A DNA stretch of 34,541 bases from Defluviitaleaceae bacterium. GTDB lineage: Bacteria; Bacillota; Clostridia; Lachnospirales; WRAX01. The notes beneath the pieces were generated by a model that ran no database searches, had not been told where the DNA came from, and worked only from the letters and a program-made list of their open reading frames with translations. The DNA is taken from positions 1 to 34,541 of the forward strand of contig WQSI01000003.1 of NCBI GenBank assembly GCA_009787945.1, written 5' to 3'. Made by a program: the position numbers and the translations under genes. Below, piece after piece: positions 27,098-34,541 of the stretch (its first letter is position 1; each line of letters opens with the position of its first letter).

Positions 27098-29221
27098 TTA
27101 ATTAAATTTCTGGTGAATTTGGCGGTTTTGCACTTCCGCAAGCTTGGTGTCGTTAAACCTGTCTAATGTGGATAGATAGCCCGTGATTCTGCGGACACGG
27201 CTGATGTTTGTGCCGCGGCATTTCGGGCATATGTTGCTGTCGATAACGCCGTTTAGACCGCAGTCTACGCAAATATCCACAGGGAAATTGACACTGGCAT
27301 AACCCATGTCTGCATCCGCCATGGCGCGGATGAGGGTTTCAAAGGCTTCCAGATTGCCTTCTGGGGCAGAAGGAAGCTCTACATAAGAAATATGACCAGC
27401 ATTGCAATATTTATGGTAAGGGCCTTCCAAAGCGATTTTGTCCAGGGCATTAATGTGGTATTCCACAGGCACATGATGGGAATTTGTGTACCATTCTTTG
27501 TCAGTAACCCCAGGTATTACGCCGAAAAGCTCTGTGTCAATTTTGGTGAATTTGCCGCTTAGCTGTTCTGCAGGGGTGGCAAGAAGGGTGAAGTTTAGCC
27601 CATGTTTTTGGGTGGCTTCGTCACAACGGCGGCGCATGTGGGACACAATGGAAATGCCCAAAGCCTGAGCCTCCGAACTTTCACCATGATGCTTTCCAGT
27701 AAGAGCCACCAAACACTCTGCAAGCCCAATAAACCCAATGCTAAGGGTACCATGCTTAATCGCTTGCTCTACAGGGTCGTTTGGCCCTAGGTTTTCGCTG
27801 TCCATATACAGCTTTTGCCCCATCAAGAAAGGGAAATCCCTCACGCGAAGCTTTTTCTGCACATTGTAGCGGGCAAGCAACTGTTGCACACAAAACTCAA
27901 GTATATCATCTAAAGACTTCCAAAAAGTGGATAAATCTTTTTCCGCTTTTATGCCTAGGCGCGGCAAGTTGAGGGTTGTAAAAGACAGATTGCCGCGGGA
28001 ATCGGTTTTCGCCTCGCCATTGCAATTTGCAATTACGCGGGTGCGGCAACCCATATATCCCACTTCTTCTTCCGCAAACGGCTTGTTAAAGCTAGAATCT
28101 TGGAAGGAAAAGCTGGGGAATAGCCGCTTACAAGCCACTTTCATAGAAAGCTGGAAAAGGTCGTAGTTGGGGTCGCCAGGCTCAAAGCTGACATCCTCTT
28201 TAATTTTAAAACAGACATTGGGGAAAATCGGCGTTTCGCCTTTGCCCAAGCCTTTTTCATAAGCAAGAAGGAAACATTCTGTCACCATGCGCCCTTCTGG
28301 CGTTGTGTCTGTGCCGAAGTTTATGCTGGAAAACGGCACTTGCGCTCCTGCGCGGCTGTGCATGGTGTTAAGGTTGTAAATGAAGCCTTCCATTGCCTGA
28401 TATGTTTCCTCATAGGTGCGCCTGTTGATAAGCCCTTTTAATTTTTCTTCATCAATTGGCAAGCCTAGCTCTTCCAAATTTTGGCGGATTATCCTGTCTT
28501 GACGCTCCCGCTCCAAACGTACATAAGGCGCCATATCCCTGTCAAAATACCCGAAAGACTGCCCCCCATGCATGTCATTTTGGTTAGACTGTAAAATGAT
28601 AGCTGCCAAAGCCCCAGCGGTTTTAATGCTTTTTGGCGGACGAATGTAACCATGCCCATTGTTAAAGCCCTCGCTTAAAAGCCTTGTTAGCGGGATTTGC
28701 AAGCATGTCATGGTTTTTGAATACCAAGACAGGTCATGTATGTAAATATCGCCTTCCAGGTGAGCTTCTGCTTCTGCTTCCGTCAACATGCGTTTTAAAT
28801 AGTAATTTTTGGAAGCAATTTCAGAAATTTGCAAAACCTTAGCCGAAGGGGAATTGCCCACATTGGCGTTTTCGCGGTTGTTTTCCTTTAGGATTGTGCA
28901 AACCGCCTCCATTAGCTCGCTGCGCGCCTCCCTAAGCCTGGAGCGGTCATCCCTGTACAAAATATAAGACTTTGCAACTTTAGCATGACCGTTTTCAATC
29001 AGCACCGCCTCCACAATGTCTTGAACATCTTCCACAGTCACCTTCTCATCTTCGCCAGGAAATTCTTGTTTAATTTTTTTGATGACTGATAGTGTCAACT
29101 CCATAGCCAGTTGGCGGTCAGGCTCCCCCGTTGCCTTCAAGCATTTGAAAATAGCATCAGTAATTTTGCTTTCATGGAAATCTTGGGTTCTTCCATCTCT
29201 TTTATAAATTTTTGTTAGCAT
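27098..29221 (-). CDS. nrdD: Anaerobic ribonucleoside-triphosphate reductase
   Basis: ATP-cone (KRDG...VEDVQDIVE), IYIHDL, YMGCRT, C-terminal CxxC pairs and RRITGYL glycyl-radical motif; ATG at 29221 with RBS AAGGAG. Confidence 0.96.
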   Translation of the reverse strand: MLTKIYKRDGRTQDFHESKITDAIFKCLKATGEPDRQLAMELTLSVIKKIKQEFPGEDEKVTVEDVQDIVEAVLIENGHAKVAKSYILYRDDRSRLREARSELMEAVCTILKENNRENANVGNSPSAKVLQISEIASKNYYLKRMLTEAEAEAHLEGDIYIHDLSWYSKTMTCLQIPLTRLLSEGFNNGHGYIRPPKSIKTAGALAAIILQSNQNDMHGGQSFGYFDRDMAPYVRLERERQDRIIRQNLEELGLPIDEEKLKGLINRRTYEETYQAMEGFIYNLNTMHSRAGAQVPFSSINFGTDTTPEGRMVTECFLLAYEKGLGKGETPIFPNVCFKIKEDVSFEPGDPNYDLFQLSMKVACKRLFPSFSFQDSSFNKPFAEEEVGYMGCRTRVIANCNGEAKTDSRGNLSFTTLNLPRLGIKAEKDLSTFWKSLDDILEFCVQQLLARYNVQKKLRVRDFPFLMGQKLYMDSENLGPNDPVEQAIKHGTLSIGFIGLAECLVALTGKHHGESSEAQALGISIVSHMRRRCDEATQKHGLNFTLLATPAEQLSGKFTKIDTELFGVIPGVTDKEWYTNSHHVPVEYHINALDKIALEGPYHKYCNAGHISYVELPSAPEGNLEAFETLIRAMADADMGYASVNFPVDICVDCGLNGVIDSNICPKCRGTNISRVRRITGYLSTLDRFNDTKLAEVQNRQIHQKFN

Positions 29222-29428
29222 TTTAAAAACTCCTTTACGCTTGTACGTTATACTAAGATTAAACCATAAATCACCTCCTGTCAAGCCCAAATATTTATGA
29301 ATTTTGCGTTTTATGTTTTCTGATAACGGCTATTTTACTTGATTTTACGGCAATTTCCAAGTTAGCCAGTCGGTTTTATCGGGTCAAAACTTTTTTTATA
29401 TAATTTTTCCTAAAGCCCCTTTCAATTT

Positions 29429-29480: not shown

Positions 29481-31841
29481 GTGATGGTGATTAGGATGCA
29501 AACAACCCAAACAAAAGAAACAGGAATAAAATTTAATATTACGCGGCGGCATTTGGTGGAATTTGCCCTGCTGGCAGGGTCATTCTTCGCCGCGCGGGCT
29601 GTGGTTTTCGGGGTGGCAAGCCCCTTCGCTCTTGTGTACATAGCAACATTTTTGTTTAACGGAAAAAAGTTTTACGCGGCGGCGTTCTTGTCGGCTCTAG
29701 GTTTATTTACCAACTTTTCAACACAGTATTCTATGCAGTATTTACTGGCAGTTGTGCTGATGTGCGTTGCAAATTTGCTGATGAGCCTGCGCCCAAAAAC
29801 AGGGCAGGACTGGGCAGCGTTAACCCAAGGCTTAACAGCATCAATATCCCTTGCAATTTCAGGGTTTGTGCTGATTATACTTCGTGGTTTCGACCTTTAC
29901 CAAATTGCCGTCACAATTTTAGAGGGAGGGTTGGTTTTCGCCATGGCAATTGTAGCGTCCAAAGCCATGACCGCCATAGCCCCTGGTTATCGGCGGCGGG
30001 GCGCGCTAACCAATGAGGAGCTAATGTCTGCGCTGTTCCTTGCCGCAATTGTTGTTGTGGGCATGGCAGACATTCATTTGTGGCTTGTTTCCCTGCGCCA
30101 TGTTGCCGCCTTTTTAATCATATTGTTGGCAAGTATCAGCGGCGGGGCTATGGTTGGGGCTGTCAGCGGTATGCTATTGGGTTTTTTGCTTAATATTACA
30201 GGGTTTGAGTACATATTTTTCGCGGTGTTATTAGGAGTTTCGGGCTTGGCAGGGGGGCTGGCAAAAAATCACGGAAAAATCCCTATTCTGATTGCTTTTA
30301 CAGCAGCTTTAACCCTTGCCGCCCTTTACTTTGACTTAACGCTGTTTTCGTGGCAATCGCTGGCATCACTGACCGTTGCCGTTGCAGTGTTCTTGGCTCT
30401 GCCAAAAAGATTTTCAACAAATATCAGCGTTAATGCGGGTTCTGCCAATCTGCCCCAAACTGAGTATTTAGAGCGTGTGCGGGAGCAGGTGTTGGGGCGT
30501 GTTTACAATATCGCTGGGGGCTACGGGAAATTAGCGAAAATTTTTGAAAACCGTGTGGAAGCAAAAGGGGTTCAGGTTAGCACGGTGGACAAGCTTGTAA
30601 AATCTGCCCAAGAGGCTGTTTGCCTAGGTTGCAGCCGTCTGGATTTTTGCTGGAAGGACAGACATGGACAGTCCTGGGCGTTTATGGACGAAATCGTCCT
30701 CAAGGCGCAAAAGCGCGGCAAATTGCACATGGAGGATGCTCCTAAGGAGTTTTATAACCAATGCACCAACGCCCCTGACTATATGGCTCATCTTGGCTCT
30801 GCATTAGAAAAAGATATTTTGTCACAGGAGTGGCAACAAAAGGTCGTGGAAGCAAAGTCAACAATTTACCATCAATTTTCAGGTTTGTCTGCGGTTATGT
30901 ATGAGTTTGCTGTAGAATTATCGACAATCCTTAACTTTCAAAAAGATTTGGAAGATAGGATTTTACAAGAATTTGCAAAAGAAAAAGTGGAGGTGGAAAA
31001 TTTGATAGTTATTGAAAACACATTGGGCAAGTACGAAATTAGCCTAACCCACAAAGGTCGGCGGGGCGAGCCGAAATTTGCAGGGCGCATTGGTGAGATA
31101 ATTTCACAAATTTGCGGCAGGCAAATGGAGCTTGTGGAAGAAAAGTATGCAGGGCGGGTGGTGCATCTGGACTTTCTTGAAAGGGAGAAGTTTTATATTA
31201 ACAGCGGCATCGCCAAAACCAACAAGGGCGGGCTTGCCCAATCTGGTGACAGCTTTTCCCTTGTGCAACTGCGGGATGGCAGGCTTATTGCCGCTTTATC
31301 CGACGGCATGGGCAGCGGAGAAAGGGCAAAAGAAGGCAGCGAAGCGGCAATTGAGCTTTTGGAAGAGCTAATGGAAAAAGGCTTTAAAAAGGACATTGCA
31401 ATAAAACTTATAAACTCTGCCCTTTTGCTAAAATCCAGTGACGAGTTTTTCTCAACCCTGGACATTTGTGTGGTTGACCTTAACACAGGGCTTTCAGAGT
31501 TTATGAAGATTGGCGCGTCTGCCAGTTACCTGCTTAGGGATGGCAAGGTGGAAGCAATTGGCTCTTGGACTTTGCCCGTGGGCATATTGGAAAGTGTTGA
31601 AATTGACACCTGTGAGCGTTATATAGCCCATGGGGACATTATTGTGATGATGACAGACGGGGTTGCCGATTCTGTTAAAAATGGCGAGGATGCCTGGTTA
31701 CGCCGTATTTTGGAAAATTTGCCCACCAAAAACCCTCAGGACGTTGCTGACCACATTTTGGAAGAAGCCCGCCGAAATTACCGTCATCAAATTAAGGATG
31801 ACATGACAGTCCTAGCTTTGAGAATACTTAACCGTAATTAG
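29481..31841 (+). CDS. spoIIE: Stage II sporulation protein E (PP2C phosphatase)
   Basis: About 10 N-terminal TM segments, CxxC...CW central region, SGDS, LSDGMGSG, TLD, MMTDGV, DDMTVL. Start could be 29481-29496. Confidence 0.93.
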   Translation: MMVIRMQTTQTKETGIKFNITRRHLVEFALLAGSFFAARAVVFGVASPFALVYIATFLFNGKKFYAAAFLSALGLFTNFSTQYSMQYLLAVVLMCVANLLMSLRPKTGQDWAALTQGLTASISLAISGFVLIILRGFDLYQIAVTILEGGLVFAMAIVASKAMTAIAPGYRRRGALTNEELMSALFLAAIVVVGMADIHLWLVSLRHVAAFLIILLASISGGAMVGAVSGMLLGFLLNITGFEYIFFAVLLGVSGLAGGLAKNHGKIPILIAFTAALTLAALYFDLTLFSWQSLASLTVAVAVFLALPKRFSTNISVNAGSANLPQTEYLERVREQVLGRVYNIAGGYGKLAKIFENRVEAKGVQVSTVDKLVKSAQEAVCLGCSRLDFCWKDRHGQSWAFMDEIVLKAQKRGKLHMEDAPKEFYNQCTNAPDYMAHLGSALEKDILSQEWQQKVVEAKSTIYHQFSGLSAVMYEFAVELSTILNFQKDLEDRILQEFAKEKVEVENLIVIENTLGKYEISLTHKGRRGEPKFAGRIGEIISQICGRQMELVEEKYAGRVVHLDFLEREKFYINSGIAKTNKGGLAQSGDSFSLVQLRDGRLIAALSDGMGSGERAKEGSEAAIELLEELMEKGFKKDIAIKLINSALLLKSSDEFFSTLDICVVDLNTGLSEFMKIGASASYLLRDGKVEAIGSWTLPVGILESVEIDTCERYIAHGDIIVMMTDGVADSVKNGEDAWLRRILENLPTKNPQDVADHILEEARRNYRHQIKDDMTVLALRILNRN

Positions 31842-31842
31842 G

Positions 31843-31871
31843 ACATATCCTCCAAAGTGAGGACATATACT
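31843..31871 (+). promoter_or_regulatory. Sigma-E-type promoter
   Basis: ACATAT...CATATACT with the same 20-nt CATA-to-CATA spacing as the spoIIID promoter. Confidence 0.55.
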
Positions 31872-31907
31872 TTTTCAACAAAGCTTGGATTTTTTGAAGG
31901 AGTTGCC

Positions 31908-32594
31908 ATGTCTGAACTTATACAAGTAATACTTATAAATCTAATTGTATCACTGGACAACATCGGTGTTATAGCCCTTGCCAGCCGCCATTTAGACCCA
32001 AAAAAAGCCAACACCGCCCGCTTGCTGGGGGTTTGGCTTTCCCTTGGTCTAAAACTGATATTTATTTTGCTTATCGGGCATTTGTTTACCATCACATGGC
32101 TGCACATCCGCCTAATTGGCGGGGCTATGCTGATTTATGTTATAATTGGTATGTTCCGCAGTGGCGACGACACCCCCAAGAAAACCCAGAAAAGCGGCGG
32201 CTTTTGGAAGGCCATGCTAATCATCATCGCCGCTGACATTTCCATGTCTTTGGACAATGTAATCGCCGTTTTGTCCATTGTGGCAGACGATGCAGGCAAC
32301 GTGTCCATGCAAGGGATGACCATGGCGTTTTTGGGGCTAATAATCTCCGTTCCTGTTCTGCTAATCGGTTCGGAAGCCATTATAAAGCTGATAAACCGCT
32401 ATAAAGCCCTTTTCGCAATTGCAACAGGCTACCTGGGTTACATTGCAGCCAACATGATTTTTGAGGACCACTTGCTTGAAAGCTTCTTCAACTTCTTGCA
32501 ATTCCCCTTCGCGCCCCAATTATCCATGATACTTGGCTTAGCAGTCGCGGTTGCTTGTTGGCTAACCTACAAAAACAAGCCCGTTGCCCACTAA
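31908..32594 (+). CDS. TerC/YjbE family membrane protein
   Basis: NLIVSLDNIGVIALA and ADISMSLDNVIAV; ATG at 31908 with RBS AAGGAG. Confidence 0.88.
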   Translation: MSELIQVILINLIVSLDNIGVIALASRHLDPKKANTARLLGVWLSLGLKLIFILLIGHLFTITWLHIRLIGGAMLIYVIIGMFRSGDDTPKKTQKSGGFWKAMLIIIAADISMSLDNVIAVLSIVADDAGNVSMQGMTMAFLGLIISVPVLLIGSEAIIKLINRYKALFAIATGYLGYIAANMIFEDHLLESFFNFLQFPFAPQLSMILGLAVAVACWLTYKNKPVAH

Positions 32595-33084
32595 GACACA
32601 TATTTGCGCATGTTTTTCAAGGCGTTCTTCTCAAGGCGGCTTACCTGGGCTTGGCTTATGCCTATCTCATCAGCCACCTCCATTTGGGTCTTGCCCTCAA
32701 AAAAGCGCAGGCTGATAATGTGGCGTTCCCGCTCCCCAAGGCGTTTCATGGCTTCGGACAGGGAGATGTTTTCTAACCACATTGCGTCTGTGTCTTTTTC
32801 GTCTTTCAGCTGGTCCATTACAAAGAGGGCATCTGCCCCGTCGTTGTAAACAGGCTCGAAAAGGGAAACAGGCTCTTGTATGGCATCAAGGGCAAAAACC
32901 ACGTCTTGACGCTCAAGCCCAAGTTCTGCGGCAATTTCTTCCACTGTTGGCTCTTTGCTGTTTAGGTTTATCAGGCGTTCCTTGGCTTGCAGGGCTTTGT
33001 AGGCAATGTCCCGCAGGCTTCGGCTCACTCTTATAGAGTTGTTGTCGCGCAAATACCGCCTAATTTCACCTATTATCATTGGAA
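32591..33084 (-). CDS. sigG: 3' half of RNA polymerase sporulation sigma factor G (regions 2.4-4), split gene
   Basis: PMIIGEIRRYLRDNNSIRVSRSLRDIAYKALQ...FALDAIQEPVSLFEPVYNDG...GKTQMEVADEIGISQAQVSRLEK is diagnostic of SigG rather than SigF. The N-terminal ~95 aa are absent and there is no RBS before the in-frame ATG at 33094. Confidence 0.93.
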
Positions 33085-33104
33085 TGAATGTCATTATGAG
33101 AAAT
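33063..33104. other. Putative serine-recombinase hybrid attachment site
   Basis: Imperfect inverted repeat (13 of 20 pairs by manual count) centred on TT (minus strand, 33084-33083), exactly where SigG similarity begins. Confidence 0.7.
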
Positions 33105-33108
33105 ATAA

Positions 33109-34488
33109 CTACACATCGAATTTATAAAACACCTCAATTTCGTCATCGGTAATCACAATTCTTTCAACACAGGAGCGGATTATGTTTTTTTGCTCTTGTT
33201 TTGTCATGTATTCCCAAGTTTCTTCAAGGGTTTCCAAGGTTTTTTTGACACTTTCAATTTTCCCTGCAATAACATTGCGCTCTTGCTCTGTGGTTATTTG
33301 GGTTTGGATTTTTGCCAGTTGCTTTTGATGCTCTTTTATAGTGTCCAGCAGTATTTCGTTGCCATTGTCAGCGTAAACATTGTAAAGCCGCTTGATTTTT
33401 TTTGCAACATCCTCATATCTGCCCCGCAAAACCTCCAGGACAGATTGGGCAGTTGCCCGAATGTCATCAACCTTTTTTTGTTTTAAAGAAAAGGAAAATA
33501 AATCCCCAATGACGATGCTTTCAACATCCCTCGCCCATTGCATCTTATTATTACAGTCTGTGTCTTTCATCAAGTGAGCCTTGCTTTTATCCCTAGAATA
33601 GCAAAGGATTTTGCAGTCGTGTTTGCCCCATTTTTGATAGCGCATTTTTGCCCCGCATTTGCCGCAGACCATCAGCCCCGTAAACAAATAACCCCCAGAG
33701 CTAACACGGCTGATTGAACGCTCTGCCATATAATCCATAGCCTTATTATAAATTTCCAAACTTACTATTGGTTCATGCTTCCCTAAAAATTCCTCATCAT
33801 TATAAATTATGTAGCCTGCGTTAGACTTGCGCTCCAAAATTTGAATGGCAAGCTTTTCATATTTCAAGCCCAATATTTGGGCGATTTTGCTGGTGGAATA
33901 GCCCTCTAAATACAAATCATAAATTTTGCGGACGGTTTCCGCATCTTTGTTCGGCACAAGAATCCCCTGCTCTTTGTCGTAGTCATAGCCGAAAGGTATG
34001 CGCCCGCCTCCCATCCAAAACCCCGCCTTTACCCGCTCTCTCATGCCCATTCTTGTCCGTTCACGGATGTTTTCCCGCTCAAGCTGGGCAAAGGCAGACA
34101 AGATGCCCAGCATCAAGCGCCCTAAAGGGGTTGATGTGTCCATGCTTTCCTGTGTGGAAATAAAATCAACCCCGTGGGGATTGAAAACATCTTCAATCAA
34201 ATACAGAGTGTCTTTTTGGCTGCGGGAAAGCCTGTCAAGTTTATAAACCAACACGGTGTTGATAGCTTTATTTTTCACATCAGAAATCAGCCGCTGAAGC
34301 TCAGGCCTTTCCATATTGCTGCCTGTGTACCCGCCGTCAATATAAAAGTCAAAATTTTTAATGCCCTTGGAAGCGCAATGACCTGCCAGCATCTCTTTTT
34401 GGGCATCAATAGAATAACCCTCTTCCCGCTGGGCATCTGTGGAAACCCTAATATAAATCCCTGCTTTGCCATGCACCACAGACCTCAC
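33109..34488 (-). CDS. Large serine recombinase (SpoIVCA-like)
   Basis: YIRVST catalytic Ser, VYKLDRLSRS, FAQLERE, PFGY recombinase domain, HEPIV, CGKCG Zn ribbon, coiled coil. The real start may be GTG at 34479 or 34476. Confidence 0.95.
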   Translation of the reverse strand: MRSVVHGKAGIYIRVSTDAQREEGYSIDAQKEMLAGHCASKGIKNFDFYIDGGYTGSNMERPELQRLISDVKNKAINTVLVYKLDRLSRSQKDTLYLIEDVFNPHGVDFISTQESMDTSTPLGRLMLGILSAFAQLERENIRERTRMGMRERVKAGFWMGGGRIPFGYDYDKEQGILVPNKDAETVRKIYDLYLEGYSTSKIAQILGLKYEKLAIQILERKSNAGYIIYNDEEFLGKHEPIVSLEIYNKAMDYMAERSISRVSSGGYLFTGLMVCGKCGAKMRYQKWGKHDCKILCYSRDKSKAHLMKDTDCNNKMQWARDVESIVIGDLFSFSLKQKKVDDIRATAQSVLEVLRGRYEDVAKKIKRLYNVYADNGNEILLDTIKEHQKQLAKIQTQITTEQERNVIAGKIESVKKTLETLEETWEYMTKQEQKNIIRSCVERIVITDDEIEVFYKFDV

Positions 34489-34541
34489 CTCTGTTCTGAC
34501 AGCCTTTGGTTTACAGCTCTAATAACCTCCGAAACCACGCC
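34485..34541 (-). CDS. Possible C-terminal end of an element gene upstream of the recombinase
   Basis: Open frame GVVSEVIRAVNQRLSEQR* whose TGA overlaps the recombinase RBS/start. Confidence 0.35.
   Translation of the reverse strand, partial: GVVSEVIRAVNQRLSEQR

Follow-up and report, generated by a model that had tools for sequence, protein, structure and literature searches.

We consider it highly probable (about 85%) that positions 33061–33108 of the window, the 34,541-nt stretch of a Defluviitaleaceae contig analysed here, are the attR site of an element of ~8.4 kb that interrupts sigG, that strand exchange occurs at the CC at 33081–33082, and that a 43-aa protein encoded next to the recombinase is the candidate directionality factor. 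The product of sigG is the late forespore sigma factor. An earlier note, made from the letters of the window, had already recognised a serine-integrase attachment site at this place, and the 2-bp core, the attP dyad and the adjoining recombinase gene described below bear this out. It had also derived the left arm from the element, which agrees with our finding that this arm begins directly 3' of the recombinase stop codon. The crossover itself, placed by that note at a TT, has to be moved by two bases. The features of the window are compiled in Table 1.

Table 1. Features of the attR region and the neighbouring part of the element in the window.
Feature	Position	Strand	Basis
3' part of sigG, starting with CC of the Pro codon, including PMIIGEIRRYLRDN and ending with the stop codon at 32591	32591–33082	-	NCBIfam SigG models and reading frame
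B' arm of attR (host half-site), inner ATGA, GAAA at positions 14–17 from the crossover (33064–33067)	33061–33080	-	Half-site consensus of 14 genomes and register analysis
42-nt dyad centred on TT	33063–33104	-	Letter match, pairing count and offset scan in 14 genomes
Probable crossover dinucleotide CC, at the start of the Pro codon	33081–33082	-	Sharing in 14/14 pairs and centre of attP symmetry
P arm of attR (element half-site), inner ATTCAT, complement of GAAA at positions 18–21 from the crossover (33100–33103)	33083–33108	-	Consensus and register analysis; arm conserved in related junctions
Large serine recombinase gene, 459 aa including the GTG start	33109–34488	-	Pfam domains
43-aa ORF, last 18 codons and stop (remainder at C40:79-153); candidate recombination directionality factor	34485–34541	-	Conservation and complex model

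The 3' part of sigG scores 290.4 bits against NF006071 (model positions 95–257) and 289.1 bits against TIGR02850 (model positions 92–254), compared with 190.8 bits for SigF, and the right arm of the site is sigG coding sequence, as the earlier note had it. A whole-genome search placed the 5' part on the minus strand of another contig of the same genome (G000:C40), where it covers TIGR02850 positions 2–97 and again has SigG as its best model with 163.2 bits; on NF006071 the two halves give 163.2 + 290.4 bits, the cut-off being 372. A separate SigF-like gene is found on contig C60. The 5' half translates as ...STYAVPM before running on into NIPIRKK. At the nucleotide level the junction in the window reads ...CAT TCA TTC CAA TGA TAA... 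and the one on C40 reads TAC GCA GTC CCG ATG AAT ATA CCC..., so that near the join the attL and attR sites of this genome agree only at T, CC, ATGA and ATA, and the TT is not among the shared positions. The insertion lies within the sigG coding frame and in-frame rejoining is possible, since a join at CC yields YAVPMIIGEI; the prediction that excision would give back YAVPM is thereby upheld, the same residues being present in the intact sigG genes of the GTDB family. In these intact genes (n = 12) the sequence FSTYAVPMIIGE(I/V) is encoded at the site GTN CC NATGAT, the empty site; of the 16 genomes of the family in which sigG was matched, 4 carry the split at this position. Approximately 60–105 nt upstream of the sigG start at position 7344 of C40 (locus L080) there is a GTATA followed, after 14 nt, by GGAAAAAATA, which by consensus has the look of a promoter of the sigma-F type, the type that sigG would be expected to have.

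The window and C40 share 78 nt without a mismatch and in the same strand, at the end of the former (34464–34541) and the start of the latter, and this match is unique among the contigs. Joined through this overlap, the element comprises C3:33083-34541 (C3 being the contig of the window) plus C40:79-7057, a total of 8,438 nt. A Logan contig of sequencing run X1 extends 7,649 nt past the end of the window, a length that fits continuation into C40; the join is based on the 78-nt assembly overlap and the length of the X1 contig. Read in the sense of sigG, the element has a DUF3899 gene, which runs on the opposite strand, then a gene for a solute-binding protein (SBP_bac_5), two permease genes and two ATPase genes, which together make up a five-gene oligopeptide-type ABC transporter operon, then the 43-aa ORF and finally the recombinase gene. 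No phage genes were seen in the ~8.4 kb. The whole element of locus L009, from a split congener, measures only ~2.5 kb. At the end of that element far from the recombinase lies a gene of ~185 aa (L009:2880-3434) with homologues in L072, L075, L081, L082, L084 and L087; it is kept in seven loci and is absent from the element of the window, where the transporter operon is present instead. Pfam searches with orf185 of L009 and with orf88 returned sub-threshold matches only, that of orf185 being to HNH_repeat. On the flank downstream of the 3' part of sigG, the window contains spoIIE (786 aa, 29481–31841, plus strand), a gene for a 245-aa membrane protein (31857–32594, plus strand) and an anaerobic ribonucleotide-reductase-like gene (27098–29290, minus strand), all three names coming from reading of the translations. 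When synteny downstream of sigG was compared with L009, the TerC-like gene and spoIIE had no match within L009.

In order to locate the crossover we compared the two junctions across genomes. A scan of genome contigs for the recombinase gave 63 loci, and the second junction, sought in 15 further genomes, was found in 12 of them (the misses being G006, G007 and G012), so that 14 attL/attR pairs were available: those of this genome, of L009 and of the 12 further genomes. All 14 pairs, which come from related genomes and are not independent trials, have the CC of the Pro codon in attL as well as in attR; no other dinucleotide is common to every pair, the next best reaching 12 of 14, and in several genomes the two junctions differ in the bases to either side of CC. 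The dyad scan was run with 22-nt arms, scores being means over the 14 genomes, on attL, attR, attB and an attP rebuilt as P arm + CC + P' arm. In the rebuilt attP 15.9 of 22 positions pair when the dyad is centred at CC, compared with 3.6–7.6 at the other 20 offsets, and this symmetry is independent of the assumed crossover because the rebuilt attP would change by one base only. The attB maximum is also at CC but is weak, with a mean of 7.8/22 (8/22 in this genome). A natural, unintegrated attP is present at L038:1336-1420, where 16 of 26 arm positions pair around a central GG, that is, CC on the other strand; it directly follows a related recombinase gene and precedes a gene resembling orf185. 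The contig is 2.8 kb long and was binned as 'Tenericutes', and a circularity test of it found no terminal overlap. Taken together, the sharing of CC, the symmetry of the rebuilt attP and the L038 site describe short dyad attachment sites around a 2-bp core, and from these sequence comparisons we infer that cutting occurs at CC.

The dyad reported by the earlier note is a real feature of the window. The minus-strand letters it quoted for this segment are exact, and the pairing of 13 of the 20 arm positions around the TT at 33083–33084 was reproduced. Counting dyads that have a 2-nt spacer and score at least 13/20 gives 12 for the 34,499 positions of the window and 708 for the 1,773,205 of the genome, ~4e-4 per position; the dyad is therefore uncommon and moderately unusual, not unique. 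When attR is considered by itself the best dyad is indeed centred on this TT (13/20, and 13/22 with the longer arms), which is what speaks for strand exchange at TT with a 5' half of sigG ending in GTT. The far junction was accordingly predicted to read TAY GCN GTT followed by element DNA, and a 5' half lacking the shared TT was named as the outcome that would overturn the proposal. What C40 carries on its minus strand is TAC GCA GTC CCG ATG AAT ATA: the Val codon is GTC, the 5' half continues as CCG ATG, there is no TT at the aligned position, and CC is the dinucleotide common to both junctions. Serine integrases require the same 2-bp core in both partner sites (PMC3783163), and because TT is absent from the far junction it cannot be the crossover. 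Across the genomes the dinucleotide at the TT offset is common to attL and attR in just 8 of 14 pairs, and the offset itself is accounted for by a 4-bp difference in register between the arms, as set out below; we see practically no chance that exchange takes place at TT.

A crossover within the shared ATGA, at TG or GA, 3–6 bases downstream of CC and with the Pro codon contributed by the 5' half, deserves more attention. In this genome attL and attR have no exact match longer than ATGA, and sequence identity within this one genome would permit exchange there; TG and GA are non-palindromic as well, and the restored protein would be identical. Compared across the pairs, however, TG is common to attL and attR in 10 of 14 and GA in 11 of 14, short of the complete sharing of CC, since G001, G002, G003 and G009 carry AGG, ATA or ACA in the 5' junction opposite the ATG of the 3' junction. 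ATGA also lies off the attP axis, with dyad scores of 5.2–6.8 at offsets +3 to +5 compared with the value of 15.9/22 at CC. We therefore regard exchange within ATGA as improbable and retain CC as the core.

The half-sites show why the symmetry of attR by itself points to the wrong dinucleotide. In the 14-genome consensus an inner, ATGA-type module is found in P, P' and B' at positions 2–5, counted from CC, and an outer GnnGAAA motif occupies positions 11–17 in B and B' and positions 15–21 in P and P'. When the outer parts of P-type and B-type arms are aligned with each other, all four pairings are best at a shift of +4 (0.57 identity, compared with 0.16–0.38 at other shifts). For the inner parts, P and P' align with B' without displacement, at shift 0 (0.59–0.65). 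The outer, zinc-ribbon motif is thus displaced between attP-type and attB-type half-sites while the inner module is fixed. In attR the ATTTC/GAAAT pairing of the dyad is this outer motif, 18–22 nt from CC on the element side and 14–18 nt from it on the sigG side. The apparent centre of a hybrid site is displaced by half of the 4-bp shift, and therefore attR looks symmetric about TT, 2 bp element-ward of the core. The same displacement recurs in the 14 genomes with both junctions, the mean attR score peaking 2 nt to the element side of CC, at offset -2 (10.0/22, compared with 3.1–8.6 at the other 19 offsets, among them CC with 8.3), and the attL score peaking at +2 (9.8/22). The 42-nt dyad is real but is the pseudo-centre of a hybrid P/B' site and does not mark the crossover; more generally, the crossover of a hybrid site, attL or attR, should not be placed by its centre of symmetry. 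The arrangement closely resembles that of the Listeria phage A118 (LI) integrase sites, which likewise have two-module half-sites with a fixed inner module, an outer motif nearer the centre in attB and a non-palindromic 2-bp dinucleotide as core. For the latter, Rutherford et al. 2013 place the motif of the zinc-ribbon domain 5 bp nearer the centre in attB (PMC3783163), whereas the displacement is 4 bp here and the motif is GnnGAAA.

The recombinase gene ends at the element edge, its stop codon (33109–33111) abutting the P arm, and its GTG start overlaps the TGA of the upstream 43-aa ORF. The product has the three Pfam domains of a large serine recombinase: Resolvase (PF00239, E = 4e-41) at residues 11–156, Recombinase (PF07508, E = 1.5e-7) at residues 181–257 and Zn_ribbon_recom (PF13408, E = 2.7e-8) at residues 268–330. 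Arg 14 and Ser 16, within the motif YIRVSTDAQ, are invariant in 32 recombinase sequences, and the four cysteines of the zinc ribbon, Cys 275, Cys 278, Cys 296 and Cys 312, are likewise invariant in 32 relatives. Ser 16 is presumably the nucleophile, going by its position. Resemblance to solved integrases is limited to the catalytic domain, the nearest being that of TP901-1 (E = 3e-40), and NCBIfam contains no named equivalog, the best matches, CcrB and XisF, falling far below their cut-offs. Within the gene, contig depth in run X1 rises ~3-fold over the 43 nt from 33624 to 33666 and two long Logan contigs break there, which suggests a short repeat or a strain branch.

Directly upstream of the recombinase gene, 28 loci including this one have an ORF of 43–60 aa with an N-terminal (R/K)Y(V/I)NG motif. 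Co-folding of recombinase residues 160–459 with the 43-aa protein in ESMFold2 scored 0.69 (median of three runs), the best of 3 controls scoring 0.02; the mark used for complex models is reached by 58 of 80 solved complexes and by 2 of 110 mismatched pairs, a calibration that holds only roughly here, our own unpaired alignments having been used. At least 82% of the contacts are common to the runs, with a partner pLDDT of at least 73. Contacts are modelled at recombinase residues 317–336, 417–440 and 449–458, the first ten residues of the small protein lying along 449–458; residues 337–416 are probably a coiled coil, since the modelled contacts flank them. The models support binding of the 43-aa protein to the recombinase, and on their strength, together with the conserved position of the gene, we infer that this protein may act as the directionality factor. 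Known directionality factors bind at the junction of the second DNA-binding domain and the coiled coil, often adding a strand (PMC12286644). In the skin element the factor gene skr overlaps the 5' end of spoIVCA (PMC6957869).

A sporulation-type promoter was sought upstream of the small ORF in the 28 loci using full consensus patterns, which gave no sigma-F-like, 1 sigma-G-like, 2 sigma-E-like and no sigma-K-like match, and thus no consistent sporulation-type promoter among these loci. The GGNNANANTR box alone occurs in 10 of 28, the shuffled sequences having a mean of 2.9 and a maximum of 8. In L030, L033-L037, L040, L042-L044, L051 and L055, which form a mouse-gut Lachnospiraceae clade, a promoter-like stretch with a perfect TATAAT is conserved ~20–60 nt upstream of the small ORF; overlapping it is a possible operator, the inverted repeat GGGAATACTT ... 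AAGTATTAT.

A sigG half lies beside the recombinase gene in 32 of the 63 loci, and all 32 are among the 48 loci whose recombinases reach 50% identity or more. The gene adjoins the 3' half on the same strand in 10 of them, as in the window, and in the remaining 22 it adjoins the 5' half in convergent orientation. In a quick tree of the 48 recombinases, made without L029 and L054, which are partial, and without the distant L057-L069 and L071, the two orientation classes are interleaved, with at least 5 changes for each class. Repeated flips of this kind would fit a near-palindromic attP, the polarity being set by the non-palindromic core. MT839977.1 (L108, 5.9 kb, annotated as 'Bacteriophage sp.', 47.8% identity) was considered as a free form of the element and set aside, as it is a chromosomal fragment in which the recombinase gene abuts a 3' half of sigG.

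From these features the following course of excision can be proposed. Cleavage of both strands by the recombinase would take place at CC, within the Pro codon of sigG; recombination of attL with attR would need the recombinase and a directionality factor, the presumably co-transcribed 43-aa protein being the candidate. The reaction would join the GTC-CC of C40 to the A-ATG-ATA... of the window, restoring an uninterrupted sigG, and the released circle would carry an attP nearly palindromic about CC. In the contigs of two termite-gut runs, X1 and X2, only the integrated form is present, and neither attB nor attP-circle joints of this organism were found in them; because contigs drop rare variants, these data are uninformative on excision. 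A loose end at 33079 that was considered as an excised product belongs to the intact sigG of other organisms, which encodes GVQFSTYAVP with different codons.

The state of the two halves bears on whether excision still takes place. Both sigG halves are open in all 14 split genomes. Between this genome and the split congener G028 (L009), which has the element in the same orientation, pS is 0.73 and 0.65 and pN is 0.024 and 0.061 for the two halves, so synonymous sites between the two split congeners are saturated; a third congener, G029, has an intact sigG. The recombinases of this genome and of G028 are sisters with 100% support, and with pS of 0.67 and pN of 0.09 they are as diverged at synonymous sites as the halves. 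Long residence in the split state, under selection, fits the saturated divergence with intact halves and the equally diverged sister recombinases, and the wide distribution in Clostridia (32 loci) would fit long residence as well; independent insertions from a co-diverging pool may be an alternative. The element might also be a fossil that no longer excises, leaving sigG permanently broken and sporulation not completed. This would agree with the integrated form being the only one in the X1 and X2 contigs, with the failure to recognise a sporulation-type promoter upstream of the recombinase operon and with the nature of the genome, an incomplete metagenome bin (78% complete), but it sits poorly with open halves that still score as SigG, with the contrast of pS and pN between the split congeners, with the divergence of the sister recombinases, with the retention of the invariant recombinase residues and with the presence in the genome of spo0A (326 bits), spoIVA (743 bits) and spoIIE. 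We judge a fossil to be unlikely, without dismissing it, and favour an element that is still able to leave sigG.

The same genome contains a sigK-type 5' fragment (G000:C91:5959-6243) that matches TIGR02846 positions 24–116 with 121.7 bits and reads ...ATYASRCIEN before it departs from the family; a matching 3' part was not found in this 78%-complete genome. The fragment may be a second split sporulation sigma gene.

Several known systems can be compared with the sigG element. Like skin in sigK of Bacillus subtilis (SpoIVCA, Skr), it splits a sporulation sigma-factor gene, it is associated with a large serine recombinase whose gene lies at the element edge beside a gene half, in-frame rejoining is expected, and the gene of the factor, here a candidate, is directly upstream of the recombinase gene and overlaps it (for skin, see PMC6957869). 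Skin, on the other hand, is a 48-kb defective prophage in a mother-cell gene, whereas the element described here is 8.4 kb long, carries a transporter operon and no phage genes and is inserted in sigG, a gene of the late forespore. It shares with gin in gerE of Bacillus cereus ATCC 10987 a non-prophage character, a serine recombinase and a small sporulation regulator gene as target, gin being larger (28.6 kb), with three recombinases and 9 nt shared with its target (PMC5595907). Set against skin, SPbeta, vfbin, vrin, gin and yin as a group, it has in common the in-frame insertion into a sporulation gene and the serine recombinase at the edge, but not the mother-cell target. Reversible active lysogeny, as in the Listeria comK prophage and Streptococcus SpyCIM1, offers a conceptual model in which an element leaves a gene to switch it on and later re-enters it (reviewed in PMC13492144); those elements are phages or phage remnants of non-sporulating hosts. 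On the sequence evidence we expect the element to work like the skin, skinCd and gin class, and its sites to behave like A118-type serine-integrase sites.

Almost all known intervening elements sit in mother-cell genes, as stated in PMC6957869, and a mother-cell target has been put forward as the reason that such elements persist (PMC4191935). A literature search, supplementary tables not covered, found no published element in sigG. Excision in the mother cell costs an element nothing, but the forespore chromosome is inherited, and the sigG family therefore raises the question of how an element persists through sporulation and whether DNA excision can gate gene expression in the forespore. One tentative answer, which we hold to be possible and rather doubtful, is a reversible developmental switch in which the element leaves the germline chromosome to allow sigma-G to be made and then has a single way to survive, which is to wait in the spore as a non-replicating circle and to return into sigG through CC after the 43-aa factor has disappeared. 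If true, this would be a developmental DNA switch in the germline, unlike the disposable mother-cell rearrangement of the textbook cases. The CC core, the two-module half-sites with their 4-bp shift, the natural attP, the empty attB and the candidate factor together provide a testable anatomy of a new serine-integrase system, and with cultured hosts among the related loci, such as the isolate behind L039, the question can be put to the test.
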